DNA of 64,000 nucleotides from positions 1,175 to 65,174 of the forward strand of contig CAINGB010000001.1 in NCBI GenBank assembly GCA_903848275.1. The letters run 5' to 3'. Source of the stretch: Candidatus Uhrbacteria bacterium (GTDB lineage: Bacteria; Patescibacteriota; Patescibacteriia; UBA9934). Below are positions 7,951 through 63,269 of the stretch, one piece after another. A program made the translations under genes and the position numbers. Under the pieces are notes generated by a model. That model made no database searches. It saw nothing but the letters and a program-made list of their open reading frames with translations, and was not told the origin of the DNA. The first letter of the stretch is position 1, and every line of letters starts with the position of its first letter.

Positions 7951-7983
7951 CCTGCCACGTCGGTCGCGACCGACGTGGCCTGC
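7951..7983. repeat. GC-rich perfect palindrome CCACGTCGGTCGCGACCGACGTGG with conserved flanks (copy 1 of 2)
   Basis: 34-nt identity with 53871..53904; core is a 24-bp perfect palindrome; lies in the uvrA–uvrB intergenic region. Confidence 0.8.
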
Positions 7984-12898: not shown

Positions 12899-14464
12899 TC
12901 ACCTAACCGAAATTCTATATAACGCCTCATCTTCGATATTATCGACCAGCTCAATCTTCAAGCCCATCTTTCCTAGCTTATCATCATTTAAATAATTAAG
13001 GTCGACTTCCGGAAACGGAATCCCGAAGTAATACAACGGCGCCAGCTTAACAGCTATCGGCATGGCTGCATACGTCGCCTCACTTCGTAACGGCTGAATT
13101 ACATGTCGTTCTGGCCACAAAAACTTATCAGCTCGGTCCACAACAATAATCGAATCCACCTCGGTCTCCGCCAATATCGTATCCCTCTTCGCTGCACTTG
13201 CCAGCAGAACTTGCCGAGTTTTAAGCAAGCCATCACTACCACCGAAAACCAACGAGCTCGACAATAATGCAACTACCAACAACCCTCCTTTCAGCCGCCA
13301 TCTCAACAACCCTTTAGTCGCAAACAACGTTGCCAACACAAACAGCGGCAACCAATAGCGCAAATGCGAGTCCCCAATTGTAATCGCCGTCGGATCTGGA
13401 TTGTCATTAAACGACCAACTACCGTACAACACGCCCAGCCACGCAGCCAAAATCAACGTGCCAAGCGCCAGCTTGCGCCAGCCTCCTTTTTCGCGCAACG
13501 ACACATAAATCCCAATCGCCGCCAAAATACTCAGCCACCAGAATAAACCAATCCCATAATGCCAAACATTTTTAATGATCGCTTTCGGGTGCACACCAAA
13601 CGGTAACAGCAAATTGATAATCGAACGTTGAATAGGCAGGGTCACCGTCCCCCGCCCCTGTAAATTTTCATGGTCAATTGCCTCCGCGGACACATGACTA
13701 TCAACCACCGTATACCCCGTCGACCACGGTTGCTGATACAAAGCAACATTGAGACTCGCATTCACAGCAATCGGCAAAGCAAAACCGAGCAGCAACATCA
13801 GCCACGGCAATTTACCAGCCACCTCTTTGCGATACGTAATCGAGATCGCCATTACTACTGGCAATATCCAAACTAATTCCGACAAGCGAAAAAACGCCGC
13901 CAAGCCAATGCCCAAGCCAGCCAGCAAAAACTCCAGCCAAGCCTTCTTCAACGGCTTCACCACCACCAACCACACCGCGAAAATAAGAAAGCAAACAAAC
14001 CCCACGTTCGGCATCATCGTGCGGGCCGCGTAATACCAAACCGCTGGCTGCAACGCCAACATCGTCGTCGCCACATAAGCGAATATCTCATTCTTCGTTA
14101 CCTTTTTCACCGTGGCGAACCAAGCGAATAAAGCTAACATCAACAAAATCGGCGTCAATAATCGCAAACCAAAAGTACCAACTAAATGTCCAAACAAACC
14201 AGCTGCAAACGACAAGCCAAGAAAACTCCCCGGCACAATAAACTCGCCCACCGCTAACGCACTCCGCGGGTGCACCAGCCCTCTCAACTGCGCTGTCACG
14301 TCGTCATGGATAGCTAGACTACCAGTCTGCAACATTGAGTTTGCAAACGTATAATTAGCATTCTCATCCGGCGAAGTAAAAGACGCCGACACCCCAACCG
14401 TCAACCATGACGTCGAACAGAAATAAATGACGAGCGCTACAATAATTACAATCTTCTTTCGCAT
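12899..14464 (-). CDS. GT-C fold glycosyltransferase-like polytopic membrane protein (ArnT/PMT-like)
   Basis: More than 10 TM helices; N-terminal loop with DE-containing motif; start moved to MRKKIVIIV to avoid a 139-bp overlap; contains an in-frame REP. Confidence 0.45.
   Translation of the reverse strand: MRKKIVIIVALVIYFCSTSWLTVGVSASFTSPDENANYTFANSMLQTGSLAIHDDVTAQLRGLVHPRSALAVGEFIVPGSFLGLSFAAGLFGHLVGTFGLRLLTPILLMLALFAWFATVKKVTKNEIFAYVATTMLALQPAVWYYAARTMMPNVGFVCFLIFAVWLVVVKPLKKAWLEFLLAGLGIGLAAFFRLSELVWILPVVMAISITYRKEVAGKLPWLMLLLGFALPIAVNASLNVALYQQPWSTGYTVVDSHVSAEAIDHENLQGRGTVTLPIQRSIINLLLPFGVHPKAIIKNVWHYGIGLFWWLSILAAIGIYVSLREKGGWRKLALGTLILAAWLGVLYGSWSFNDNPDPTAITIGDSHLRYWLPLFVLATLFATKGLLRWRLKGGLLVVALLSSSLVFGGSDGLLKTRQVLLASAAKRDTILAETEVDSIIVVDRADKFLWPERHVIQPLRSEATYAAMPIAVKLAPLYYFGIPFPEVDLNYLNDDKLGKMGLKIELVDNIEDEALYRISVR
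13631..13656 (+). repeat. REP hairpin AATAGGCAGGGTCACCGTCCCCCGCC (copy inside a CDS, in-frame)
   Basis: Matches the REPs flanking the RAYT gene at 17190 and 17522; translated as QGRGTVTLPIQ in the minus-strand CDS. Confidence 0.75.
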
Positions 14465-15045: not shown

Positions 15046-15100
15046 ATTCTCCCTAATCCCTGTTACAGCTGCCAAGTCTATGTTATTATCATACCAGATT

Positions 15101-17170
15101 ATGGAAAAAATATTCCTTCGAGCTACAATTGCGCTGAGCTTAGTCACAATTCTCGGCAGCCTACTCTACTACACCCTTCCAGTCACCTGGCTCGGCTTAT
15201 TCCTGATCCTCATCTTTTCTGTCTTGGTCGCCATCCTTCTCCCCTTAAAATCCCCCGAATCAAGTCAACCAAAGCTCAGCTTTGGGCGCAAACCAGAAAT
15301 CACGCTGAGCGCGATAATAATCCTTGCGCTAACCGCCTGGTGGACCGTCGTCTTCCCCATCAGTATCACCACCGCCGTTCGCTCCCCTTGGGGCATTGTT
15401 CCCGTTTTCTCCCTAGCAGCTCTCGCGATCGCAATCTTTAGTTTGATTGTATTAACTTCTTCTAGCCGGGTGACGCGGAGGGAGGCCCCTGCCGGGCGCG
15501 CAGCTTGCGAGCATCTGGCGGGGTCCGCAGTGGCAGGACCCGGCCGTAGAGACGATATAATAACCACCGCTCTCTTTATCATTACTTTATTTTCAGCGAT
15601 CTCCATGGCCGCCGTCATCTACCCAATTGGCTTCGGTTTCGACCCCTTTCTCCATCGCGCTACAGTCGAGCACATCGCTACCTTCGGCACCATTACGCCT
15701 AAGCCGTTGTACTACATCGGCCAATACGCCCTCGAGCTCACCCTGCATCTCATCGGCGGCTTACAACTTATCCTCGTCGATCGTTTCCTCCTCCCTCTTC
15801 TCGCCGCCATTTTACTCACCGGCAGCACTCTCCTCGGTCTTGCATCTTACACTAAAATCAAGTCAAATTTCGTCCTCGCTGGCCTCTTACTCTTTCCCCT
15901 CAGCACCCTCATCTCAACAACTCCCCAAGGCCTAGCCTACGTTTTCTGCGCCAGCGCCATCATGCTTTCCTTCACTTCATCACTCATCCCCGCTGGCCTC
16001 TTAGCCCTCGCCGCCGCTATCACTCACCCTATCGCCGGCATTCCCGCCGTCATCTTCGTCTTCACCTCTTATCTCCTCCGTCGAGCCACAAATCGCACAT
16101 ACCAAAAAATAATCTTGGCCTGCGCTTTCATTCTCAGCACCCTCGCCATCCCCACTCTCTTCGCCCTCCAAGCCGCCAAATCCGGCCTCGCCCTCTCTCT
16201 CAACCTGGCTAACCTTTTTGACCTCTCCCGCTGGCACTCTCTCGGCCTCACCTCATTCTTCAGTAATCACTTTAACACCTGGTACGACGCCCTTTACTTG
16301 GTCATCGATAACCTCTTCCTCATCACCATAATCTTCGCTCTCATCGGCTTCTTTTATCACTTAACATCGAAATCCTTTACATTGGGTGACGCGGGGCAGG
16401 TCCCCTGCGCGGCGCGCAACGCAGTGAGCACCGAGGAGGGTGGCCAAGCGGCAGGACCCAATGAACTCAGGCACCCAAATCTCTTATTACTCTTACTCAC
16501 CTCAAGCGCCATGTTCCTGAGCTTCGTCGTCCTCTCCCTCCTCTTCAACTTCGACTTCCTAATCTCCTACGAACGAAGCGACTACGCCTTACGCTGCCTC
16601 ACTTTAGCGCATATTTTCTTAATCCCTCTAGCCGCCTTAGGCCTCGTCACCATCAATAACTTCTTACAAAAAAAACCACTGGCCCTCCGCCTCACCTTCT
16701 TCGTCCTCCTCACCGTTATCGCTATCGGCAACATTTACGGCGCCTATCCTCGCCACGACAACTACGCTACTAGTGCCGGCTTCAACACCTCGCAGGCCGA
16801 CGTCGACGCAGTGCAAAAAATCGACACTCTGGCGGACGGTCAAGACTACATCGTTCTTGCCAACCAAGCCACTTCTGCCGCCGCTATCAGTCTCTACGGC
16901 TTCAAAAAATATTATCACGACGACATCTTCTACTACCCAATCCCAACTGGCGGCCCGCTCTATCAAAAATATCTAACCATGGTCAACAACACGCCGAGCC
17001 TCGACACTATTCATGAAGCTATGGACTTAGCTGGCGTCAATCTGGCCTACTTCGCCATTAGCGATTATTGGTGGGACGCTAAAAACATTATCTCTCAAAG
17101 CAAACTCCTCACCAACTCATGGTTCACGACTCCCGACGGCTCCGTCACGGTCTTTGAATTCCGCCGCTAA
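15101..17170 (+). CDS. large polytopic membrane protein (envelope/glycosylation-type) carrying two in-frame GC-rich repeat insertions
   Basis: 690 aa, many TM helices plus C-terminal soluble domain; two hydrophilic about 28-aa loops are encoded exactly by repeat copies A and B. Confidence 0.55.
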   Translation: MEKIFLRATIALSLVTILGSLLYYTLPVTWLGLFLILIFSVLVAILLPLKSPESSQPKLSFGRKPEITLSAIIILALTAWWTVVFPISITTAVRSPWGIVPVFSLAALAIAIFSLIVLTSSSRVTRREAPAGRAACEHLAGSAVAGPGRRDDIITTALFIITLFSAISMAAVIYPIGFGFDPFLHRATVEHIATFGTITPKPLYYIGQYALELTLHLIGGLQLILVDRFLLPLLAAILLTGSTLLGLASYTKIKSNFVLAGLLLFPLSTLISTTPQGLAYVFCASAIMLSFTSSLIPAGLLALAAAITHPIAGIPAVIFVFTSYLLRRATNRTYQKIILACAFILSTLAIPTLFALQAAKSGLALSLNLANLFDLSRWHSLGLTSFFSNHFNTWYDALYLVIDNLFLITIIFALIGFFYHLTSKSFTLGDAGQVPCAARNAVSTEEGGQAAGPNELRHPNLLLLLLTSSAMFLSFVVLSLLFNFDFLISYERSDYALRCLTLAHIFLIPLAALGLVTINNFLQKKPLALRLTFFVLLTVIAIGNIYGAYPRHDNYATSAGFNTSQADVDAVQKIDTLADGQDYIVLANQATSAAAISLYGFKKYYHDDIFYYPIPTGGPLYQKYLTMVNNTPSLDTIHEAMDLAGVNLAYFAISDYWWDAKNIISQSKLLTNSWFTTPDGSVTVFEFRR
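15465..15544 (+). repeat. GC-rich element, copy A (GCCGGGTGACGCGGAGGGAGGCCCCTG...GGCAGGACCCGGC), in-frame in a CDS
   Basis: Conserved termini GGGTGACGCG...GGCAGGACCC with inverted flanks; subfamily shared with copy E. Confidence 0.8.
16382..16461 (+). repeat. GC-rich element, copy B, in-frame in a CDS
   Basis: Interior nearly identical to copies C and D (GGTCCCCTGC...GAGGAGGGTGGCCAAGCGGCAGGACCC). Confidence 0.8.
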
Positions 17171-17504
17171 TTAATAATAGTAATTTCTCAATAGGCGGGG
17201 TCACCGTCCCCCGCCGTAATTCCCTTTCTGAAAACCACCGAGCCATAAAACCCTTTACCCCCTTCATATAATCACTAAATGTTTTTGTTCCCTGTGGCCA
17301 GATAATACAATGGAAATGATCGGGCATTACCACGGCTGCAATCAGTAAAACGTTATATTGCTTCGAATAGTATTTCAACTCCTTTATCAGCATCAATGCA
17401 GCTTCTTCGTCTATAAACAATGGCAATCGATTAAACGTAGTGGATGAGATAAAATGTGGCAAATTCAGCTCAGTCCACAAAGCATGAGTTCGTGCAGAAC
17501 GCAT
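17145..17504 (-). CDS. REP-associated tyrosine transposase (RAYT, IS200/IS605 TnpA-like Y1 HUH)
   Basis: HUH motif VMPDHFHCII, N-terminal pattern LPHFISSTTFNRLPLF, Tyr in SDYMKGV; flanked by inverted REP hairpins; ORF 3' end reads through a REP. Confidence 0.7.
   Translation of the reverse strand: MRSARTHALWTELNLPHFISSTTFNRLPLFIDEEAALMLIKELKYYSKQYNVLLIAAVVMPDHFHCIIWPQGTKTFSDYMKGVKGFMARWFSERELRRGTVTPPIEKLLLLISGGIQRP
17190..17215 (+). repeat. REP hairpin AATAGGCGGGGTCACCGTCCCCCGCC (3' flank of RAYT)
   Basis: Stem GGCGGGG/CCCCGCC; seen directly. Confidence 0.8.
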
Positions 17505-17521
17505 AATAGATTATTTATCAT

Positions 17522-17547
17522 GGCGGGGGACGGTGACCCCGCCTATT
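17522..17547 (-). repeat. REP hairpin, inverted copy (5' flank of RAYT)
   Basis: Reverse complement of the 17190 copy, including the AATA flank. Confidence 0.8.
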
Positions 17548-22757: not shown

Positions 22758-23026
22758 ATTTTTTACTAAAGGCTGGGTAGTGACGTAGCTGGGTAGCGGG
22801 GTAGATTAAACTATTTAGCAGCCTGAGCCTTGTAGGAGAGAGCAACTGGCAGGGTGGTCCTCTGACGACGCCAAGACCGGCCCGTGTCTATCGCTCCGAT
22901 CAATCACGAGGCTCGGCAAGATAGCGAGAGACCGGTCGCCATTCCTCCACCAACTCAGTTAAGAAATGTGGCGGTCGCGTCTGCAGCTAGGAAGAGGACT
23001 ACTCTGCCGGTTGCGAGCAACGAACA

Positions 23027-25143: not shown

Positions 25144-25401
25144 CTAATTATTAGCCCAAGTATAGCACAGCTTAATCTTCTCCGCCCTCGTCATCTTCTT
25201 CAGCGCATTCTCCCGCAAATGCGCCGCACTCTCGGACTCCTGCGCCTCGACGAAAACTAATTTAAGCGGCCCTCGCCCCCTAGTATACTTCGCCCCTTTC
25301 CCTAACCTGTGTTTCTCTACTCTGGCCTGCACATCGGTGGCAATCCCGGTGTATAGCGTCCCGTCACCGCACTGCAGAATGTAGACAAACCAGTCGGACA
25401 T
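25144..25401 (-). CDS. GIY-YIG nuclease-domain small protein (UPF0213-like)
   Basis: WFVYILQCGDGTLYTGIATDVQARVEKH...GAKYTRGRGPLKLV. Confidence 0.75.
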   Translation of the reverse strand: MSDWFVYILQCGDGTLYTGIATDVQARVEKHRLGKGAKYTRGRGPLKLVFVEAQESESAAHLRENALKKMTRAEKIKLCYTWANN

Positions 25402-25455
25402 AAAAATAGTTGGTAGTTAGTAGTCGGTAGTTGGTAGCTTAAAAATTTTATTGAG

Positions 25456-25605
25456 CCCAAAAGACCAAGTAGCGAGGGGCAGGCCTAACATCCTTTAGTC
25501 GGGTGACGCGAGCCAGGTCCCCTGCTGGGCGCGGAACGCCTAGTGAGCACCCAGGAGGGTGGCCAAGCGGCAGGACCCGACGAACCTTCGCACCCCAAGC
25601 CTTGG
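25456..25605 (+). repeat. GC-rich element, copy C, extended 150-nt form
   Basis: Near-identical over about 150 nt to 29166..29316; core 25498..25581. Confidence 0.85.
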
Positions 25606-25649
25606 CCTAGATTGTTTCGCTAACGCTCGCAAAAACAAATCAAATAGAG

Positions 25650-26192
25650 TTAAATCCGCAACTTCCGCAGCTCTCCCCGCAACTTCTTCGCTTCCGGCAA
25701 CATCTCCAGCATCCTCCGCCAAAAAGCCGGCCCGTGGTTATGCTCAGCAATATGGCACAACTCATGCACGACCAAATAATCCTGCAACTCCGGTGGCAAC
25801 ATGACAACCCTGTAATTAAACGACAAATTTCCTACTCTATTACAACTTCCCCATCTGCTCTGCTGATTGCGAATGCTCAGCTTCCCAATCGTAAAGCCGT
25901 AATGCAGATTAAAATATTGCAGCCGAGCCTCAACCAACCTTAGCGCCGCCTGCTTATTCTTCTTGTACTCAACCGTCGTCCCCTCGCCAATCCTCTTAGC
26001 TGACGTCAATTTCATCTTCATTCTCACCTCCTCAATCCAAGCCATTTTACTCTTCACTAACCCCGCAATCATCCGCAAGCTCACCCTCAATGGCGCCGAA
26101 ACCCTCACCTCGCCCGACCCATCAATCCGTATTCGCACACTCCGCGACCGCCGGTAGCGCTTAATTTTAAAACCGACTTCATCGCTAACCAT
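25650..26192 (-). CDS. DUF45 / M48-family (YgjP-like) zinc metallopeptidase
   Basis: HELCHIAEHNH zinc-binding motif; N-terminal pattern typical of DUF45. Confidence 0.75.
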   Translation of the reverse strand: MVSDEVGFKIKRYRRSRSVRIRIDGSGEVRVSAPLRVSLRMIAGLVKSKMAWIEEVRMKMKLTSAKRIGEGTTVEYKKNKQAALRLVEARLQYFNLHYGFTIGKLSIRNQQSRWGSCNRVGNLSFNYRVVMLPPELQDYLVVHELCHIAEHNHGPAFWRRMLEMLPEAKKLRGELRKLRI

Positions 26193-27960: not shown

Positions 27961-28046
27961 AAGGATATTTTGGTGGGCCGGGAAGGGTTCGAACCTTCGA
28001 AGGCGTGAGCCAGGAGATTTACAGTCTCCCCCGTTTGACCGCTTCG
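27961..28046 (-). tRNA. tRNA-Tyr (anticodon GTA), long variable arm, CCA encoded
   Basis: Manual fold: acceptor GGGTCGG/CCGGCCC, anticodon loop CTGTAAA, T-loop TTCGAAC, 14-nt variable arm. Confidence 0.85.
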
Positions 28047-28123
28047 GTACCGACCCTGGAGCCGGGGGTCGGATTCGAACCGACGACCTGCTGTTTACAA
28101 AACAGCTGCTCTAACCAACTGAG
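28047..28123 (-). tRNA. tRNA-Thr (anticodon TGT), CCA encoded
   Basis: Manual fold: D-stem GCTC/GAGC, anticodon stem GCTGT/ACAGC with loop TTTGTAA, T-arm GTCGG-TTCGAAT-CCGAC. Confidence 0.85.
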
Positions 28124-28177
28124 CTACACCGGCGTACTAGCGCGAGTAAGATAACAAATAATGCCATTTTAGGCAAC

Positions 28178-29131
28178 TTATTCATTCCTTAGCTTTTTTA
28201 ATGCCTTTTGGTAGTACCCAGCCAAATCCGTCGCATAGTTCGGATTCATCGTCCGCCAGTTCGCTCCGTTATACTGCGTGGCAAATTGCTCGGCATGTTC
28301 GTTGATTGGGAAGATCGACGTCGGCTCATCCAATTTTTCCGCCATAAATCCCACCAACAACTTAACCGCATTCTTCGGGCTATTCATCTGCCCCACTGTC
28401 TTGTTCAAATTATGCCGAGCTCGTTTACCTGCCCCTTTATCCAACACATGATAAGGCGAAATAGAAAATGTGTGATTAGTTGAGTCATACAAAGAAAACT
28501 GGTTCGAACCAATATGCTCGCCCGACTCCATCTTAGCAATCGCCAACATGCTAGCACTGAACTCATCCTCGCCTATTTTCTCAATGATCTTGCGAGCCGT
28601 TTCCCCATAACATTCATCCTTCTCTAATTCCTCGATTCCTTTCTTCGCTTCCGTTAAAAAATCCTCATCGCTAATTTGCAACTTCGAACGCTCAACCGGT
28701 ATCGGCAACCATTCCACATCATGCACCGACTGTTCGGCAATATTAAAACCGACGGTACGCCTCTGCTGCTTATCTAAATATCCGTACTCTGGCAACAAAC
28801 TCAAAGTATTTTGAATACTCTCTTTCGTATCACCAGGCTGCACCCGATAATAATCGAGTCCAATATCATGAAAAATCTCAATCCCCGGCATAATCATCTC
28901 CGTTCTCGCTGCTCGCTCTTCCGCTGTAAACTCCCCACCCAGCACCTCTAAATCAAACTCCGGGTTATCACGATACTTCATCTCCATCTGTTCACTCGTC
29001 CCTATGTCGACGCCGTGAGTCATCGTTTCCGACTGCGCCTGCCGAATCGTCTCCGCACCAAGTCCAGCCGTGCCAATCGCAAAAGCTGTCGTCAAACCAC
29101 GCAGATACTTATTTGGCCGTTCGTGCATCAT
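28178..29131 (-). CDS. hypothetical protein
   Basis: 317-aa ORF; no domain recognised. Confidence 0.4.
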   Translation of the reverse strand: MMHERPNKYLRGLTTAFAIGTAGLGAETIRQAQSETMTHGVDIGTSEQMEMKYRDNPEFDLEVLGGEFTAEERAARTEMIMPGIEIFHDIGLDYYRVQPGDTKESIQNTLSLLPEYGYLDKQQRRTVGFNIAEQSVHDVEWLPIPVERSKLQISDEDFLTEAKKGIEELEKDECYGETARKIIEKIGEDEFSASMLAIAKMESGEHIGSNQFSLYDSTNHTFSISPYHVLDKGAGKRARHNLNKTVGQMNSPKNAVKLLVGFMAEKLDEPTSIFPINEHAEQFATQYNGANWRTMNPNYATDLAGYYQKALKKLRNE

Positions 29132-29165
29132 ATTTTATTAGAAGTAGTCTAACCATTTTTAGCAG

Positions 29166-29316
29166 CCCAAAAGGCCAAGTAGCGAGGGGCAGGCCTAACC
29201 TCTTGTAGTCGGGTGACGCGAGCCAGGTCCCCTGCTGGGCGCGGAACGCCTAGTGAGCACCCAGGAGGGTGGCCAAGCGGCAGGACCCGAAGAACTTTCG
29301 CACCCCAAGCCTTGGT
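29166..29316 (+). repeat. GC-rich element, copy D, extended 150-nt form
   Basis: Near-identical to copy C; spurious ORFs 29149..29415 and 29213..29434 derive from it. Confidence 0.85.
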
Positions 29317-29332
29317 CGTAGAGCTAAAATAC

Positions 29333-29827
29333 TTAATTACCAGCTCCGACAAACAAATTATAAATCGCCTTAACAATCGGATCGACATCCGGCCCGTACA
29401 CCATAGCCCCACCAAGCGAACCAGTGATAAGTAATAATGCTAAGCCCAAAATAGACAAGGGAATGGCTACCCATGGCTGCAACATACTTTCTGCCAAACG
29501 GATAATCTGTTCGTTGAAGTACTTACGCAACAACAAAACCAAATGCGACAATGCTAAAATGCCGAAAGCTAAGGTGGTATAAAGGGCAAAGTGATCGTGC
29601 ACCTCTAGTACCTTTGACACCGTACCGTGCTGCTCTGCCGTTTGCTTGAGCAACCAACCAGAAAAGAAAGTCACCACACTGGTCGCTGAGCCAATTATTA
29701 CTAGCGCTGACTTCAACGGGAACCACCAGGTCGCTCGTACTAACTTAGGTAAACGAACCACCTCCACAGCTACATAGACGCTGAGCAAAGCAATTGGGAA
29801 GTGAACAAAGACTGGATGTAGGTCCAT
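29333..29827 (-). CDS. membrane protein (DUF2231-like)
   Basis: N-term HPVFVHFPIALL, 4 TM. Confidence 0.4.
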   Translation of the reverse strand: MDLHPVFVHFPIALLSVYVAVEVVRLPKLVRATWWFPLKSALVIIGSATSVVTFFSGWLLKQTAEQHGTVSKVLEVHDHFALYTTLAFGILALSHLVLLLRKYFNEQIIRLAESMLQPWVAIPLSILGLALLLITGSLGGAMVYGPDVDPIVKAIYNLFVGAGN

Positions 29828-50422: not shown

Positions 50423-51568
50423 ATGGAACAAACTAAGAAAAAATCTAGCCGCGGCAAATCAAGAAGCTACTCCAAGCCGATTGAACGCGCACTCTACGCA
50501 TTTGCAGCCGGACGTTGCGAGTTCAAAGGATGCAACAAGCCCCTGCTTGTTCATCACCTCTCGTTGAACGCGGGCAACTTTGCCGAGAAGGCACACATCC
50601 GCCCCTTTAGTCCGGATGGTCCACGAGGTACGGGATCATCAAAAGATCGGTCTGACATTAATGGCGTAAGCAATTTGATGTTGCTCTGCGGTGGTTGCCA
50701 CGAGGAAATCGATGGCCGCCCCGACGAATATCCGATTGACCTGCTCAAGAAACATAAGAAGGAGCATGAGGATCGTGTGTCGATGGTAACCAGCCTCGGG
50801 TCTGAGTGCCGAACAAAAGTCATCGTGCTCAAAGCGAATATCGCTGGCCAGCCGACGTCAGCCTCGGACGAAGATGTCTACAGGGCACTGTTTCCTAACC
50901 GTTGGGCAACAAAGAAGCCCGTGGATGTCATCGACCTAACGGGTGTACTCGACCGTGCAAATGGTTACAGCACTTTTTCAGAAACTATCGCCGATCATGT
51001 GCGTGGGTTTTATAGCGAAATACCGGATCACGTCTCGGTGTTTGCTATTGGACCAATGCCCCTGCTCATGGATCTTGGCTCCCGGCTCAGCAATAAGATT
51101 CCTACCGATTTCTTCCAACTTCATCGAGATACGAAAAGTTGGGAATGGAAAAAGGAGGGTGGCGCTACGCGCTATGTCACCAGTAAGGCTCGTCAGGGTA
51201 CCGACCCCGCAAAAGTAGCTCTTGTTGTTTCACTCAGCGGGACAATAGATATCGCTGCACTTTCGCTCGACGACAAGTACAGCGTCTATCTACTAACGTT
51301 AGACGGCGCCATACCGAACCCGGGGTTTCTGCAAACGCAGAAAGACCATGATGGATTCCGGGAGGAATACAGACGGTGCATCGCTCAAATCGCATCCGAG
51401 AATCCTACCGTTAAAGAAATCCACTTCTTTCCCGCAATGCCGGCTCCAATCGCTGTAACGTGCGGCTATGATCTTCTCCCGAAGGCGCATCCCGCGCTCA
51501 TCATTCATGACTACGACAAGGCTCTCGGAGGCTTTCGCGAGGTTCATAAAATTAATTTTTCCGTATGA
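50423..51568 (+). CDS. HNH endonuclease–SAVED domain effector (Cap5-like)
   Basis: HNH CEFKGCNKPL...H...NLMLLCGGCHEEID; C-terminal duplicated CARF-like halves (FAIGPMPLLMDLGSRL, FFPAMPAPIAVTCGYDL). Confidence 0.65.
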   Translation: MEQTKKKSSRGKSRSYSKPIERALYAFAAGRCEFKGCNKPLLVHHLSLNAGNFAEKAHIRPFSPDGPRGTGSSKDRSDINGVSNLMLLCGGCHEEIDGRPDEYPIDLLKKHKKEHEDRVSMVTSLGSECRTKVIVLKANIAGQPTSASDEDVYRALFPNRWATKKPVDVIDLTGVLDRANGYSTFSETIADHVRGFYSEIPDHVSVFAIGPMPLLMDLGSRLSNKIPTDFFQLHRDTKSWEWKKEGGATRYVTSKARQGTDPAKVALVVSLSGTIDIAALSLDDKYSVYLLTLDGAIPNPGFLQTQKDHDGFREEYRRCIAQIASENPTVKEIHFFPAMPAPIAVTCGYDLLPKAHPALIIHDYDKALGGFREVHKINFSV

Positions 51569-52452
51569 CGTCACATGCTTATCTTTTGAAAGTCCTCGAA
51601 TCTCAACGTATTGTTCCGGGCAGCGCAGAACTGAATGCATTAACAACGGCACAAAAAGAGGTTGAGGAAATCATTCGCGCGTCGTTTAAAGACTCGAACC
51701 CTGTCATTTGTCCTGGCGGATCACTCGCGAAAGGCACCATGATAAAGGAATCCTACGACCTCGACATCATTTGTTATTTCCCCAAATCGGATGATGAACC
51801 CGGCGATACGCTCAAGGAAATTTACGAAAGCGTCGCTACAGCTCTGTCGGATAAGTATACGGTTCGTCGCAAGCGTTCAGCACTCCGTTTGTTCGATAAG
51901 GACACCGACACAAACGACTTCCATATTGATGTCGTACCGGGTCGTTACGTGGACGGAACGCAGGGAGACTGCTTCATTCATCAGCACGAAGGCGACAAGG
52001 TATATCTCAAGACGAACCTGCAGAAACACATCACCCACATCCGTAATAGTGGTGTCACAGACGCCATTTCGTTATTGAAGTTATGGAAAGTCCGCAATAG
52101 CATCCCTGTGAAGACCTTTGTTCTGGAGCTTCTGGTAGTTGAGGCATTGAAGGATCACAAAAACGACACGTTAAACGGACAACTCGAGCACGTGTTTTCT
52201 TTGTTGAGAGACCAGGAAATCGCTACCGTCACAGATCCGGCGAATGCGTCGAATGATCTATCGGACAGGTTTGATTCGAGCATGCGCTCTCGGCTGGCCA
52301 CAGAGGCAAAGAAAACACTAGAGGCTATTAATAACAAGGGATGGGAATCGGTTTATGGTGCCGTGTCGTCAGATGATGGCGCGAAGAAGATCGGTATCTT
52401 GTCGCGAGCAGCAAAGTCAGATGAAAGCTTTACTCGCCCTTGGCACTCATAA
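51565..52452 (+). CDS. cGAS/DncV-like nucleotidyltransferase (CD-NTase / SMODS)
   Basis: Pol-beta-type motifs GGSLAKGTMIKESYDLDII and DFHIDVVPG; ATGA overlap with upstream gene. Confidence 0.65.
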   Translation: MTSHAYLLKVLESQRIVPGSAELNALTTAQKEVEEIIRASFKDSNPVICPGGSLAKGTMIKESYDLDIICYFPKSDDEPGDTLKEIYESVATALSDKYTVRRKRSALRLFDKDTDTNDFHIDVVPGRYVDGTQGDCFIHQHEGDKVYLKTNLQKHITHIRNSGVTDAISLLKLWKVRNSIPVKTFVLELLVVEALKDHKNDTLNGQLEHVFSLLRDQEIATVTDPANASNDLSDRFDSSMRSRLATEAKKTLEAINNKGWESVYGAVSSDDGAKKIGILSRAAKSDESFTRPWHS

Positions 52453-53870: not shown

Positions 53871-53904
53871 CCTGCCACGTCGGTCGCGACCGACGTGGCC
53901 TGCC
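53871..53904. repeat. GC-rich perfect palindrome element (copy 2 of 2)
   Basis: 34-nt identity with 7951..7983. Confidence 0.8.
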
Positions 53905-55498: not shown

Positions 55499-56506
55499 CT
55501 AACCTCTCCCCAAAAACTCCACTAACGCCACCTCATGTTTGCGCAGATGAGGAAACTTTTTCATCGAACTCAACTTCGGTTCTCGCCAGCTAAATCTCTG
55601 CTCAATATAACAAGTAATAACATCCGGGTGAATATAACTCCGTCTACACACCGCGCTCGTATTGCCGAGCGCCTCCGCCGCCTTACTTATAGCCTCTTTT
55701 ATATTTCGTTGTAATTCTTTTTTATTTCCCGGCGTCGACGTTTTCCACAAATGCTCCGCCACAATCACGGTGCCGTGCCACGTCCGGAAGTCCTTGGCCG
55801 TCACCTCCCTTTTGGCTATCTCTTGCAAATACTCGTTCACGTCCGTGGATTTGATGTCATGCACGGCGTCATTATCATCCACATACTCAAACAACTCATG
55901 CCCAGGAATATCCTGGCACGCCGCCACCACTTGCCGTAATCGTGCATCATGCAGCGGCACTTCATGCACAATTCCCTCCTTGCCCTTAAAAACGAGCCTC
56001 ATTTTCTCACCCGTCCCTTTAACGTGCCTATTCTCCAGCGTCGTCAAACCATAAGTCCCATTCTCTTCCGCATACTCATCGTTACCAATCCTCACATATT
56101 CATCATCGAGTAGCTTCACAATCGCCGCCAACACTTTTTCCTTATTCATTTCAGCCGACGCAAAATCCCGCGCCACAATCCGCCGTATCGGTGACAACGA
56201 CTTGGCAAAATCCACCAGTCGATGAAACTTCTTCTCATCCTGCTTAGCCGTCCAGTCAACATGATAAATATATTGTTTGCGGCCTTTACTATCACATCCC
56301 GTCGCTTGCAAATGTCCATTCGGCAACGCACAAATCCAAACATCTGTATACGCCGGCGGAATCGCCAACGCCTTAATTCTCGCCAGTGTTTCCCTGTCTT
56401 TCACCTTTTTCCCAGCCGCATCCACATACCAAAAAAACCCCAACCTCTTCCGTCGAGTAATCCCTGGCTGCTCATCGGTCACATAAATAAGCTTCATCAA
56501 GCCCAT
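55499..56506 (-). CDS. DNA topoisomerase IB (bacterial/poxvirus type)
   Basis: Motif TAKDFRTWHGT; active-site Tyr region SAVCRRSYIHP; 335 aa. Confidence 0.8.
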   Translation of the reverse strand: MGLMKLIYVTDEQPGITRRKRLGFFWYVDAAGKKVKDRETLARIKALAIPPAYTDVWICALPNGHLQATGCDSKGRKQYIYHVDWTAKQDEKKFHRLVDFAKSLSPIRRIVARDFASAEMNKEKVLAAIVKLLDDEYVRIGNDEYAEENGTYGLTTLENRHVKGTGEKMRLVFKGKEGIVHEVPLHDARLRQVVAACQDIPGHELFEYVDDNDAVHDIKSTDVNEYLQEIAKREVTAKDFRTWHGTVIVAEHLWKTSTPGNKKELQRNIKEAISKAAEALGNTSAVCRRSYIHPDVITCYIEQRFSWREPKLSSMKKFPHLRKHEVALVEFLGRG

Positions 56507-59996: not shown

Positions 59997-60090
59997 CAGC
60001 GGGTGGCGGCGAGCAGGTGCCCTGCGGGTCGCGACGTTGCAGCCTCTGCAGCTAGCGACTCGGAGGGTGCGAGCCAGACAGGACCCGCTG
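59997..60090 (+). repeat. GC-rich element, divergent copy F
   Basis: Ends CAGCGGGTG...GGACCCGCTG; same orientation as the other copies. Confidence 0.6.
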
Positions 60091-60410: not shown

Positions 60411-62228
60411 ATGACTTCTATCCTTACCGAGCCAAAACGCGACTACATCCTACTCATTCTCATCGCCTTAACATTCGGTGCAGATTTACTTTTACACGAA
60501 CCGCTCACGCTCTTCATCATCGCAGGCGTTGCTGTCATTCCAACTTTCTGGAACTCTGCCCTCGCCGCTCGTCACGGCAAAATCACTATCGACACTTTCA
60601 ACACCTTCGCCGTCATCGTTTCTTTTGCGACTGGCGAGGCTTACTCTGCTGGGTTCATCGCCCTCATGTTGACGTCCGCCCGCATTCTCGACTGGTACAC
60701 CGAGTCACGCACTCATCATGCTATTGAAGAGTTACTCCGCCTCAAACCAACCACCGCTTTCCTCGAGCAAGGCCAAATTGTAACCGAGGTCGATGCTGAC
60801 ACCATCAAAACCGGCGACGTGGTGCTCGTCAAAAGTGGTGCTCGAATTCCTGTCGACGGCGTTGTCACCGACGGTTCAGCCCACGTCAACGAGGCTATCG
60901 TCACTGGCGAGTCAGAACCAATCGAGAAGAATGTCGGCGATCGTGTGATTAGCTCAACCCTAGTCGACATTGGTGTCCTGCATGTCAGAGCCACCCAAGT
61001 CGGCAAAGACTCCACCCTCGAGCGCATGGCCACCCTCATGCATACGGCCAGCTTACACAAATCCACTACCGAAAAATTAGCGGATCGTTTTGCTACCATC
61101 TTCTTACCCGTCGTCGGCCTCCTTGGTGCTCTCACCTACGCCATTACCCGCGATCTCACCATGACCGCCGCCCTCTTCCTCATTGCCTGTGCCGACGATA
61201 TGGCCGTCGCCATTCCTCTCGCCATGACCGCCTCACTCGGCCAAGCTGCCAAACGTGGTGTCATCGTTAAAGGCGGACAAACCCTCGACGCCTTAAGCCG
61301 CATGAAAACGCTTGTCCTCGACAAAACCGGCACGCTCACCTTCGGCAACCTAGCAATTCGTGCCGTCCATCTGGCGCCCAACGTCGACGAGAATCATTTC
61401 TGGACAGTCCTCGCCAGCGCCGAAAAATATTCGGAACACCCAGCCGGTCGTACCGCCTACAAAGAAGGCTTACGTCGACTGGGCACTGTGGCTGACCCCA
61501 CCGATTTTAAACTCTACAAGGGCAAAGGTGTGACTGCGCAAGTTGGCACCGAAACCATCGTTGCCGGCACTGAGCTGCTCTTCGCCGAACTCGGACTCCC
61601 CATCCCTACCGTACCCGAAGACGCCCTCGGCTCCGTCTTTTGGGTAGCTTGCAACGGCCAACACATTGGCTCTCTTGAAGTCGCCGACATTCCGCGTCCC
61701 GAAGCCGCCGCTAGCCTAGCTAAACTTCGCACTCTCGGCGTCACGCGCATCATCATGCTAACCGGTGATAACGAACGCGTCGCTAAAAACGTCGCTGAAT
61801 TACTCGGCATCACCGAATTCCGTTCTCGCATGACGCCAGAAGGTAAAATGCTCGCCCTGGAAGAGCTTTTTGCTACCGGTCCTGTCGGCATGGTCGGCGA
61901 CGGCGTAAATGACGCTCCAGCCTTAGCCCGCGCTGATATTGGCATTGCTATGGGCGGTGGTGGTGCCGCCGTTTCCGTGGAAGCTGCTGACGTCGTCATC
62001 ATGACCGACAACCTCGCACGTTTGCCGGAAATGATGGAACTCGGCCGCAGCACACTAAGCGTCGTTAAAGGCGACATTGTCATCTGGGTCATCTCAAATC
62101 TTGTCGGTTTCACCCTTGTTTTCACTGGAATCGCCGGTCCTGCTCTAGCCGCCTTCTACAACTTCGCCACCGACTTCTTTCCACTCTTCAACTCCAGCCG
62201 CCTCTTTAAAACAAAACGAGGGCCTTAA
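60411..62228 (+). CDS. cation-transporting P-type ATPase (short form)
   Basis: TGES, DKTGTLT, GDGVNDAPAL motifs. Confidence 0.85.
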   Translation: MTSILTEPKRDYILLILIALTFGADLLLHEPLTLFIIAGVAVIPTFWNSALAARHGKITIDTFNTFAVIVSFATGEAYSAGFIALMLTSARILDWYTESRTHHAIEELLRLKPTTAFLEQGQIVTEVDADTIKTGDVVLVKSGARIPVDGVVTDGSAHVNEAIVTGESEPIEKNVGDRVISSTLVDIGVLHVRATQVGKDSTLERMATLMHTASLHKSTTEKLADRFATIFLPVVGLLGALTYAITRDLTMTAALFLIACADDMAVAIPLAMTASLGQAAKRGVIVKGGQTLDALSRMKTLVLDKTGTLTFGNLAIRAVHLAPNVDENHFWTVLASAEKYSEHPAGRTAYKEGLRRLGTVADPTDFKLYKGKGVTAQVGTETIVAGTELLFAELGLPIPTVPEDALGSVFWVACNGQHIGSLEVADIPRPEAAASLAKLRTLGVTRIIMLTGDNERVAKNVAELLGITEFRSRMTPEGKMLALEELFATGPVGMVGDGVNDAPALARADIGIAMGGGGAAVSVEAADVVIMTDNLARLPEMMELGRSTLSVVKGDIVIWVISNLVGFTLVFTGIAGPALAAFYNFATDFFPLFNSSRLFKTKRGP

Positions 62229-62243
62229 AATAAACTTCTTTTA

Positions 62244-62324
62244 GTCGGGTGACGCGGAGGGAGGCCCCTGGGCGGCGCGCAGCTTGCGAGCACCGAACGG
62301 GGTCCGCAGTCGGCAGGACCCGAC
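62244..62324 (+). repeat. GC-rich element, copy E
   Basis: GTCGGGTGACGCGGAGGGAGGCCCCTG...GGCAGGACCCGAC; closest to copy A. Confidence 0.8.
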
Positions 62325-62369
62325 GAAGTCTTTTACTCTAATGCCCGAGTCTAAAACATTGATCAATTT

Positions 62370-63269
62370 ATGTCCCAAGTCCTCTTCATCGGCGCTGGCA
62401 AAATCGGCACTGCCCTAGCCCACGTCATCAATGACCGTGCTGCCATCGATCTCTGGGATCAAGACCCAACTCAGGCTCCCAACATGAAGCCTTTGGTCGA
62501 GAGTGTCCCTTTAGCTGACGTCATTTTTCTTTGCACTCCTTCCTGGACCATCCGCGCTATCATCGAGCAAATAATACCATTCTTACGCCCTATTACAGTT
62601 ATAGTTCTGTTAGCCAAAGGTCTTGAAGCAGAAACACAAAACACCATGGACACTGTGCTCGCCAATCTCCTGCCTGCCGTTCAACCGTGGGGCCTTCTCG
62701 GCGGTCCGCTATTAGCCGACGAACTAACCGACGAGTTGCCAAGCATTGGCGTTTTTGCTTCTGCTTCACGTCCAACATATCTCGAAATAAATAAACTTTT
62801 CCTAGGTACCAACGTCCGCCTCGAATACAGCACCGATCCTCACACCATCGCTCTCGCCGCCGTCCTTAAAAATATCTATGCCGTTATTCTCGGTCTCGCC
62901 GCGGGCCTCGGTTGGGGCTACAACGGCCAAGGCTGGTTGGCAGCTCGTGCGCTCACCGAAATAACCAACATCATCCAACAGCTTAATGGCGACGCAATTC
63001 TCGTAGCTGGCTCAGCTGGTGCTGGTGATTTTCTCGCCACCGCCATGAGTCCAGACTCTCACAACCGCACCGCCGGCATCGAGATCGCTAAAACGGGTCG
63101 CTGCATCACTACCAATGAAGGCTGTCGTTCTCTCCCACCTATCATCGCTCTACTCAACAATCAGCTCGATCAATTTCCACTCTTGTTCGCTCTCGATCAA
63201 ATCGTCAATCAACACGCCGCCGCAGCAGCCATTTTCCATGGTTTATTAATAGCACCTGAAATAAAATAA
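62370..63269 (+). CDS. gpsA: NAD(P)H-dependent glycerol-3-phosphate dehydrogenase
   Basis: FIGAGKIGTALA Rossmann, AKGLEAET, AAVLKNIYAVILG, GDFLATAMSPDSHNRTAG. Confidence 0.7.
   Translation: MSQVLFIGAGKIGTALAHVINDRAAIDLWDQDPTQAPNMKPLVESVPLADVIFLCTPSWTIRAIIEQIIPFLRPITVIVLLAKGLEAETQNTMDTVLANLLPAVQPWGLLGGPLLADELTDELPSIGVFASASRPTYLEINKLFLGTNVRLEYSTDPHTIALAAVLKNIYAVILGLAAGLGWGYNGQGWLAARALTEITNIIQQLNGDAILVAGSAGAGDFLATAMSPDSHNRTAGIEIAKTGRCITTNEGCRSLPPIIALLNNQLDQFPLLFALDQIVNQHAAAAAIFHGLLIAPEIK

Follow-up and report, generated by a model that had tools for sequence, protein, structure and literature searches.

A GC-rich hairpin repeat family, probably mobile, between and within the genes of Candidatus Uhrbacteria and other bacteria

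The DNA analysed here (the window, 64,000 nt from a Candidatus Uhrbacteria bacterium) contains six copies of an irregular, GC-rich hairpin of 70–90 nt that belongs to a dispersed repeat family. The strand whose fold is preserved is the plus strand as written here. Copies are gained or lost at particular sites, without a target-site duplication, between tightly packed housekeeping genes, and in one lineage, the Uhrbacteria-like genomes, they show a replication-linked polarity. We think it probable, though some way from certain, that the family is a non-autonomous, structure-defined mobile repeat akin to the REP/REPIN, Rickettsia palindromic (RPE) and ERIC elements. We treat it as previously undescribed, since neither Rfam nor the literature, searched by topic and by sequence words, holds a description that matches it.

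Six copies in the window

A covariance model built from 56 copies, run over the window with filters off, finds exactly six copies, all on the plus strand. They are listed below with the two intergenic blocks that hold the long-form copies, A and B.

15456..15553, plus strand: short-form copy (site 1), core 15468-15541, in frame and in sense orientation inside the membrane-protein ORF 15080..17170
16372..16471, plus strand: short-form copy (site 2), core 16384-16459, in frame and in sense orientation inside ORF 15080..17170
25402..25648, no strand assigned: intergenic block of 247 nt, made up of an upstream GGTAG-repeat spacer, copy A and a downstream tail
25456..25605, plus strand: long-form copy A, core 25501-25578, outer stem GACCAAGTAGCGAGGGG…CCCCAAGCCTTGG, covariance model score 97.7 bits
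29132..29332, no strand assigned: intergenic block of ~200 nt, containing copy B
29166..29316, plus strand: long-form copy B, core 29211-29288, covariance model score 92.6 bits
59989..60098, plus strand: copy of a divergent subfamily with an extra apical hairpin, core 60001-60086, upstream of a small membrane-protein gene
62235..62333, plus strand: short-form copy, core 62247-62321, between a P-type ATPase gene (60411..62228) and gpsA (62370..63269)

The conserved core, 70–90 nt long, reads GGGUGRCG…CCCUG…RCAGGACCC. Its pattern in DNA, GGGTGACGCG-N8-CCCCTG-N40-52-GGCAGGACCC, has five exact occurrences in the window against 0.00 expected from shuffles. In the long form this core is nested in an extra outer stem, GGCCAAGUAGCGAGGGG…CCCCAAGCCUUGG. 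A sequence-only reading had described copies A and B as a near-identical pair of about 150 nt, lying between minus-strand genes in otherwise unrelated contexts and extended by flanks of about 35 nt around the core. Each of these observations holds. Pairwise alignment of 25456-25605 with 29166-29316 gives 6 mismatches over ~152 columns (~96% identity), the similarity ends abruptly on both sides, and the sequences beyond are unrelated to one another. A repeat search pairs 25434-25605 with 29144-29315 as a direct repeat of 172 nt, 92% identical when ungapped. The neighbours of copy A are minus-strand genes for a GIY-YIG protein (25144..25401) and a YgjP-like peptidase (25650..26192), while those of copy B, also on the minus strand, are a 317-aa gene (28178..29131) and a DUF2231 gene (29333..29827). 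The ~35-nt flanks turn out to form the outer stem round the core. The ORFs that overlap the two copies (25559..25804, 25540..25722, 29149..29415 and 29213..29434) are GC-only and, as had been supposed, look spurious, a by-product of the GC-rich insert.

The same reading had named an assembly artefact, or a known rRNA or tRNA fragment, as what would overturn it. Neither fits. Independent NCBI, JGI, ENA and Logan assemblies carry family members at other loci, and the window's own proteins, in-frame inserts included, recur identically on other contigs. Rfam 15, applied to the window at gathering score, reports only three tRNAs elsewhere and nothing at the elements; at E<=10 it matches no family at copy A, and at E<=1 none at 12 metagenome loci. 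ARAGORN and Rfam together place no RNA gene at copies A and B. We consider the chance that the element is an artefact or an RNA gene fragment to be negligible.

Several other features of the window may be recorded here. Genes for tRNA-Tyr and tRNA-Thr (27971-28133, minus strand) are adjacent with zero spacer (28056/28057), and a gene for a bacterial type IB topoisomerase lies at 55499-56506 on the minus strand. A small palindromic repeat, CCTGCCACGTCGGTCGCGACCGACGTGGC, is found at 7951-7983, 53871-53903 and 1576-1608. Another, AATAGGCGGGGTCACCGTCCCCCGCC, occurs at 13631-13665, 17190-17220 and 17513-17547; it also follows copies of the hairpin family at loci L017 and L047 and precedes one at L041, and is therefore common to several genomes. 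It may be a terminator hairpin.

A covarying fold on one strand

The outermost helix of the core, P1, consists of GGGU/ACCC and 2–5 further pairs whose sequence varies between copies yet remains complementary. Inward of P1 lie a G-C pair bearing an AGG bulge of 3 nt, then a purine-purine pair that swaps between A·G and G·A. Beyond it follow helices P2–P4, with conserved internal loops, a conserved U·G wobble and a variable tip. In the first set of 56 copies, 96% of cells are paired, and covariation is 0.301 against 0.108 in shuffles. In the larger set (105 copies, 87 sources), the paired fraction is 93.7% of cells, with covariation of 0.305 against 0.119. None of 500 shuffles reached the observed value in either set, and sliding the pairing partners collapsed the paired signal. 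The purine swap follows a rule that is nearly absolute. GGGUGA is matched with GGCAGG, and GGGUGG with GACAGG, in 56 of 56 first-set copies and in all metagenome copies but one. The rule has a single exception among ~90 real copies, and five of six false positives violate it.

The plus strand is identified as the folding strand because its G·U and U·G pairs would become C·A mismatches on the opposite strand. Among the 105 copies, one plus-strand pair exchanges between GU (42), AU (36) and GC (17), and another is UG in 91 of 99 copies. In 54 of 56 copies the plus-strand core is predicted to fold more stably than its complement; for the long form, the predicted fold of the complement is at least as good as that of the plus strand. 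A kink-turn has an invariant G·A pair at 1b·1n that adjoins a 3-nt bulge. We rejected one for the GA/GCAGG loop, in which roughly half of the copies have G at the would-be 1n, a position that covaries with position 103 instead.

Such a fold might instead belong to a functional structured RNA: a small RNA, a protein-binding RNA, an element for mRNA processing or stability, or even a new ribozyme class. Copies would then be retained for what the RNA does, with dispersal as a secondary matter. The fold is kept on the plus strand only, through the U·G wobble, the G·U/A-U/G-C exchange and the A·G/G·A covariation. The same motifs and hairpin recur in CPR, Omnitrophota-type and soil contigs, which counts against a mobile repeat; so do the conserved wobble and the purine swap, and the core features as a whole are more typical of functional RNA than of REP or MITE DNA. 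Some lineages also seem to hold single copies in unrelated contexts, as is the case for small self-cleaving ribozymes, and all five of the independent in-gene copies considered here are in sense orientation. Against a functional RNA, no neighbouring gene is conserved, and Pfam domains show no enrichment, and include no transposase, among the 103 neighbour ORFs of genome copies, the 48 of metagenome copies and the ORFs between paired copies. Orientation relative to neighbouring genes is mixed (~17 sense, 8 antisense). About one third of copies, A and B among them, are antisense to both neighbours, and orientation tracks replication-strand composition better than transcription. Rfam has no matching family, and a self-cleaving RNA within dus, purQ or membrane-protein mRNA would be harmful. 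Promoter and terminator scans gave nothing consistent at copies A and B. An intrinsic terminator was likewise rejected, as the scans found none at either copy and the minus strand has only 3–5 T after the outer stem of the long form. On balance, we regard a functional RNA as unlikely, though it is a serious rival to a mobile repeat.

Gain and loss, in-frame insertion and polarity

The mobility suggested for the family is supported in the form of site-specific gain or loss, since the sites of the 25k, 29k and 62k copies are empty in relatives. The window is syntenic with Candidatus Uhrbacteria UBA11707, whose proteins are ~76% identical. There, the 25k site is empty: the GIY-YIG start codon abuts the YgjP stop codon (…GGACATA|TTAAAT…) and the whole 247-nt block is missing. 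In another relative, L062, the 29k site (ortholog 83% identical) holds a short AT-rich spacer with an 8-nt gap between the called genes, and at the 62k site the ATPase gene and gpsA are 1 nt apart. At the MazG site, the gap before the next gene is filled by a long-form copy in UBA11707, a short spacer in L059 and a different GC-rich element in the window. Decay is also visible. At the YgjP/GIY-YIG site of L063 the outer stem alone survives, the core having been deleted between two GGCAGG repeats, and in UBA11707 the copy at membrane-protein site 2 has decayed until it can no longer be detected.

The junctions are AT-rich and have no common motif. At 247 nt and ~200 nt, the blocks that relatives lack exceed the repeat in length and look composite. 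Target-site duplications, which had been put forward as a check on the copy boundaries, are absent at the 25k, 29k and 62k junctions when filled and empty sites are compared. The same comparisons do not bear out GAGCC direct repeats as element ends.

The sequence-only reading had proposed a MITE-like or structured-RNA repeat family. A structured repeat family it is, with a longer unit, shorter in-frame copies and a covarying hairpin; the strict sense of MITE-like does not stand. The family does resemble a classical cut-and-paste MITE, of the kind that derives from the insertion sequence of a DDE transposase, in being a small, multi-copy, non-coding inverted repeat with presence/absence polymorphism. 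However, none of the three filled/empty comparisons shows a target-site duplication, there are no terminal inverted repeats beyond the hairpin itself, the termini vary while the interior is conserved, and neither a transposase nor a parent insertion sequence was seen among the 103 and 48 neighbour ORFs. We therefore consider a classical MITE very improbable.

Nor does near-identity alone indicate recent mobility, as had been supposed. Long-form copies from different genomes are 86–96% identical to one another, against only ~76% for orthologous proteins, and the 78-nt core of copies A and B is identical to cores at non-orthologous sites in UBA11707 and 'bacterium DeMMO3_42'. The 95% identity of copies A and B thus says little of their age, because the sequence is either constrained or exchanged between genomes. 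Judged from these comparisons, their near-identity would reflect either constraint or exchange, and not necessarily a recent duplication within the source genome.

Other repeats occur at or near these sites. Runs of GGTAG on the plus strand (CTACC on the minus), at 25402-25450 and 22758-22810, lie directly upstream of minus-strand start codons (GIY-YIG and MazG-like). They accompany copies of the hairpin family at L029, L045 and the 25k site, yet also precede an unrelated element, and could serve as a leader or promoter or else belong to a larger composite repeat. That second element (22758-23026) is a GC-rich structured element of ~200 nt at the intergenic site between MazG and a 332-aa gene. 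A 22-bp stem closes it, its MFE is -85.5 kcal/mol (z = -3.1) and Rfam has no match for it; it is preceded by GGGTAG repeats and by a lead-in, TTTAGCAGCC, that is common to the long form of the hairpin family. A homologous copy lies at L063 4770-4925, and UBA11707 has a hairpin-family copy at the equivalent site. A third hairpin repeat, ACCGTTGACATCYGAGGAAGACAGRGTCTACCTCWGATGTCGGCTCGTTAT, is intergenic at L063 4925-4975 and 8535-8585, on a related 1.08-Mb contig, where both copies adjoin remnants of the other two families.

At least five independent copies lie inside genes, all in sense orientation, and add ~25–35 aa. They use one of two open frames (RVTRR… or GDA…); the third has a TGA in GGGTGAC variants. 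In the window, the cores at sites 1 (15468-15541) and 2 (16384-16459) are conceptually translated as …SRVTRREAPAGRAACEHLAGSAVAGPG… and …LGDAGQVPCAARNAVSTEEGGQAAGPN…, and junction sequences of in-gene copies include …SSSRVTRREAPAGR… and …GDAGQVPCAAR… (conceptual). Most orthologs of the 696-aa membrane protein (ORF 15080..17170) lack both inserts; P0002 has both, P0003 only that at site 2, and P0008 one at a third site. In dus of L014 and L026, the insert falls between the conserved …FCQVVKEV and …LIVFREMVSAEAV, and in purQ of L038 it falls just past GICNGFQ…LPG. The dus inserts, in two genomes other than that of the window, are of the subfamily of the 60k copy. A copy that is in sense orientation and in an open frame persists as an in-frame insert, presumably translated. 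Concatenated in-frame translations, which are short, low-complexity peptides, found no match at E<=0.01 in a set of 5.8 billion proteins. At orthologous in-gene sites, related genomes carry different subfamilies. This would need either gene conversion among the copies or more than one insertion at a given site, and it weighs against a mobile repeat.

Polarity with respect to replication is clearest in the Uhrbacteria-like genomes. There, GC skew on the element strand is negative in 28 of 29 copies (8 kb around each; -0.06 to -0.29), regardless of local gene strand. At CPR loci, the G-rich strand, which is not that of the element, carries the genes for an EF-type GTPase, SecY and FtsZ, and this makes the folding strand the lagging-strand sequence. 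On an 838-kb contig, all six copies in the first 323 kb are on the minus strand and five of the seven that follow are on the plus, in parallel with a change in the sign of the skew. Omnitrophota-type copies show no visible polarity rule, a further point against a mobile repeat. As a cause of polarity, hairpin stability on the lagging-strand template is unsupported for the long form, whose complement folds at least as well.

The window also includes a defence/prophage-like island (31079-53700) that starts at tRNA-Trp and has a GC skew of ~0, against -0.2 elsewhere in the window. It encodes an OLD-family nuclease, a type I R-M system (HsdM/S/R), a large serine recombinase, GmrSD, DUF2779, a terminase-like gene, two DNA methylases (one fused to ParB), an S24 repressor-like peptidase and a CBASS pair (HNH-SAVED and SMODS nucleotidyltransferase, 50423-52452).

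Nearly absolute polarity in the Uhrbacteria-like genomes, together with the lack of family copies in this 22-kb island of differing skew, could point to a domesticated DNA structural site. Such a site would serve the host in a replication-oriented manner, like the BIME/REP sites bound by gyrase, IHF or Pol I or like polar chromosome-organising sequences. However, with six copies over 64 kb and orthologous sites that are often empty, no single site is required, and copies in frame within genes are hard to see as selected by the host. To our knowledge, no protein binds the family's DNA. This explanation seems improbable to us, clearly more so than a functional RNA.

Distribution, related systems and possible mode of movement

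The 105 copies in 87 sources come from Patescibacteria (CPR), Omnitrophota-type genomes and soil metagenome contigs. A pattern scan of 185,579 species-representative genomes returned 58 loci, ~48 of them real and concentrated in a small number of genomes: Candidatus Uhrbacteria UBA11707, 'bacterium DeMMO3_42', a Parcubacteria MAG, a few singletons, two MAGs labelled Gammaproteobacteria, Omnitrophota MAGs and MAGs labelled Planctomycetales. Metagenomes contributed ~36 further real copies, among them a soil subfamily of 90 nt and a set of several copies from a single metagenome, and viral contigs had no match to the core pattern. All matches carry the search pattern by construction, and the true family is probably wider.

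Some of the taxonomic labels deserve caution. Contig CAZKGL010000001.1, with nine loci (L005, L008, L019, L023, L027, L040, L044, L054 and L055), is from a MAG labelled 'uncultured Gammaproteobacteria'. That label is doubtful, because the 838,942-nt contig of the MAG encodes a 49%-identical ortholog (P0008) of the window's Patescibacteria-specific membrane protein. 'Planctomycetales' labels may also be unreliable for the MAGs that have an element type in common with Omnitrophota MAGs. In one MAG, which encodes LpxA, elements form head-to-head inverted pairs ~260–290 nt apart with extended shared flanks (L042 830-1225 and L053 4995-5439), an arrangement that looks like a composite unit. Among metagenome copies, one (L070 613-1495) is ~400 nt away from a gene for RNase P RNA, while another (L078 1035-1367) is ~100 nt upstream of a lysine riboswitch; this nearness is probably coincidence.

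REP/REPIN sequences, with their GTAG- and CGTC-tagged superfamilies, are GC-rich palindromic hairpins mobilised by RAYT (TnpA-REP) (PMC3733652, PMC3116915). Like them, the family is a GC-rich hairpin that is mostly intergenic, occasionally within genes and free of target duplication. REP sequences have an unpaired GTAG or CGTC tag at one end. A TAG(Y)C/GACG-like motif flanks P1 in the Uhrbacteria subfamily only (YTNTAG(Y)C on the 5' side and GACG on the 3'), and is absent from Omnitrophota-type and 838-kb-contig copies. In contrast to the 20–40-nt palindromes or symmetric doublets of REP/REPIN, these elements measure 75–150 nt and are strongly asymmetric, with strict strand polarity. Their core motifs and fold occur in very different lineages, unlike those of lineage-specific REPINs. 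No RAYT, whose gene usually has REPs on either side, was found among the window and neighbour ORFs (40 and 151), and the in-frame copies within genes depart from the extragenic position that characterises REP.

In this last respect the family is closer to the RPE, reportedly described by Ogata et al. in 2000. These are palindromic repeats of 100–150 nt in a small genome, AT-rich, located between genes and in frame within protein-coding genes, and we know of no transposase for them. As with RPE, the present elements form a palindrome of ~100–150 nt that also lies in frame within ORFs. By description, they differ in phylum, their hosts being Patescibacteria-like and others rather than Rickettsiales, in being GC-rich and in a covarying core common to distant lineages.

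The ERIC/IRU elements of enterobacteria and the Correia/NEMIS elements of Neisseria are imperfect palindromes of ~100–150 nt, highly conserved between species and dispersed in transcribed intergenic regions in either orientation to genes; Correia elements make TA duplications. We know of no mobiliser for them, nor of any report of copies in frame in essential genes or locked to replication polarity. The family shares with them the imperfect palindrome of ~100–150 nt, the conservation between species, the dispersal between genes in either orientation and the lack of a known mobiliser, and differs in its in-frame gene copies, its replication polarity and its lack of a TA duplication.

IS200/IS605 ends and their miniature derivatives (PATEs) move as single strands through Y1 HUH transposases, with two different end hairpins and a fixed target tetranucleotide (PMC6006769). 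The fixed target, of 4–5 nt, adjoins the left end on its 5' side. Shared with these systems are the absence of target duplication, a replication-tied orientation and, as we propose, recognition of a folded strand. Unlike IS200/IS605, the family has one long hairpin, no shared target motif at its junctions and no TnpA that we could find. Integron attC sites were also considered and rejected; R''/R' core sites (RYYYAAC…GTTRRRY) are lacking, and copies are dispersed singly rather than in cassette arrays.

These comparisons suggest how a mobile repeat of this kind might move. An enzyme encoded elsewhere in the genome would mobilise copies in trans; where the mobilising enzyme of REP/REPIN is known, it is a single gene elsewhere in the genome. 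The putative enzyme would recognise the single strand in its folded state, in the way that HUH/Y1 transposases recognise REP/REPIN and IS200/IS605 ends, and copies would pass through a single-stranded intermediate. Such an enzyme would account for the conservation of structure rather than of termini, for the lack of duplication and for the near-uniform polarity. We advance this mode of movement tentatively, with less confidence than mobility as such. The enzyme is one that we infer; no transposase was found beside any copy or anywhere in the window, and a scan of 40 window ORFs found neither a HUH or DDE transposase nor a RAYT. Two further points tell against a mobile repeat: neither a target motif nor an exact element boundary can be defined from the junctions, and the lagging-strand polarity of the folding strand appears opposite to that described for IS608.

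It is also possible, although we would not count on it, that the core is a new and widely distributed structured nucleic acid with a function or partner of its own, either an RNA (protein-binding, catalytic or a processing element) or the recognition hairpin of a so far unrecognised system for the mobilisation of single-stranded DNA. The conserved core, the non-canonical covariation and the near-absolute polarity point to a protein or process that reads the fold; its discovery would bring to light either a mobile-DNA system or an RNA class that is new. If so, this structured class would be common to Patescibacteria, Omnitrophota-type and soil bacteria, and would be one that colonises essential genes in frame and is oriented with replication.

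CPR/Patescibacteria genomes are tiny, streamlined and thought to be repeat-poor. In the window, a structured repeat makes up much of the intergenic DNA and splits tightly packed gene pairs. Genes next to copies of the family have ordinary housekeeping functions (FtsZ, NrdR, pyruvate kinase, PrmA, SecDF and transketolase, for example). The family also yields spurious ORF calls in annotation, and the covariance model from this analysis can be used to mask and track the element in metagenomes. Because it adds loops of 25–35 aa to enzymes such as Dus and PurQ, the repeat contributes to change in the proteins and operons of these organisms.
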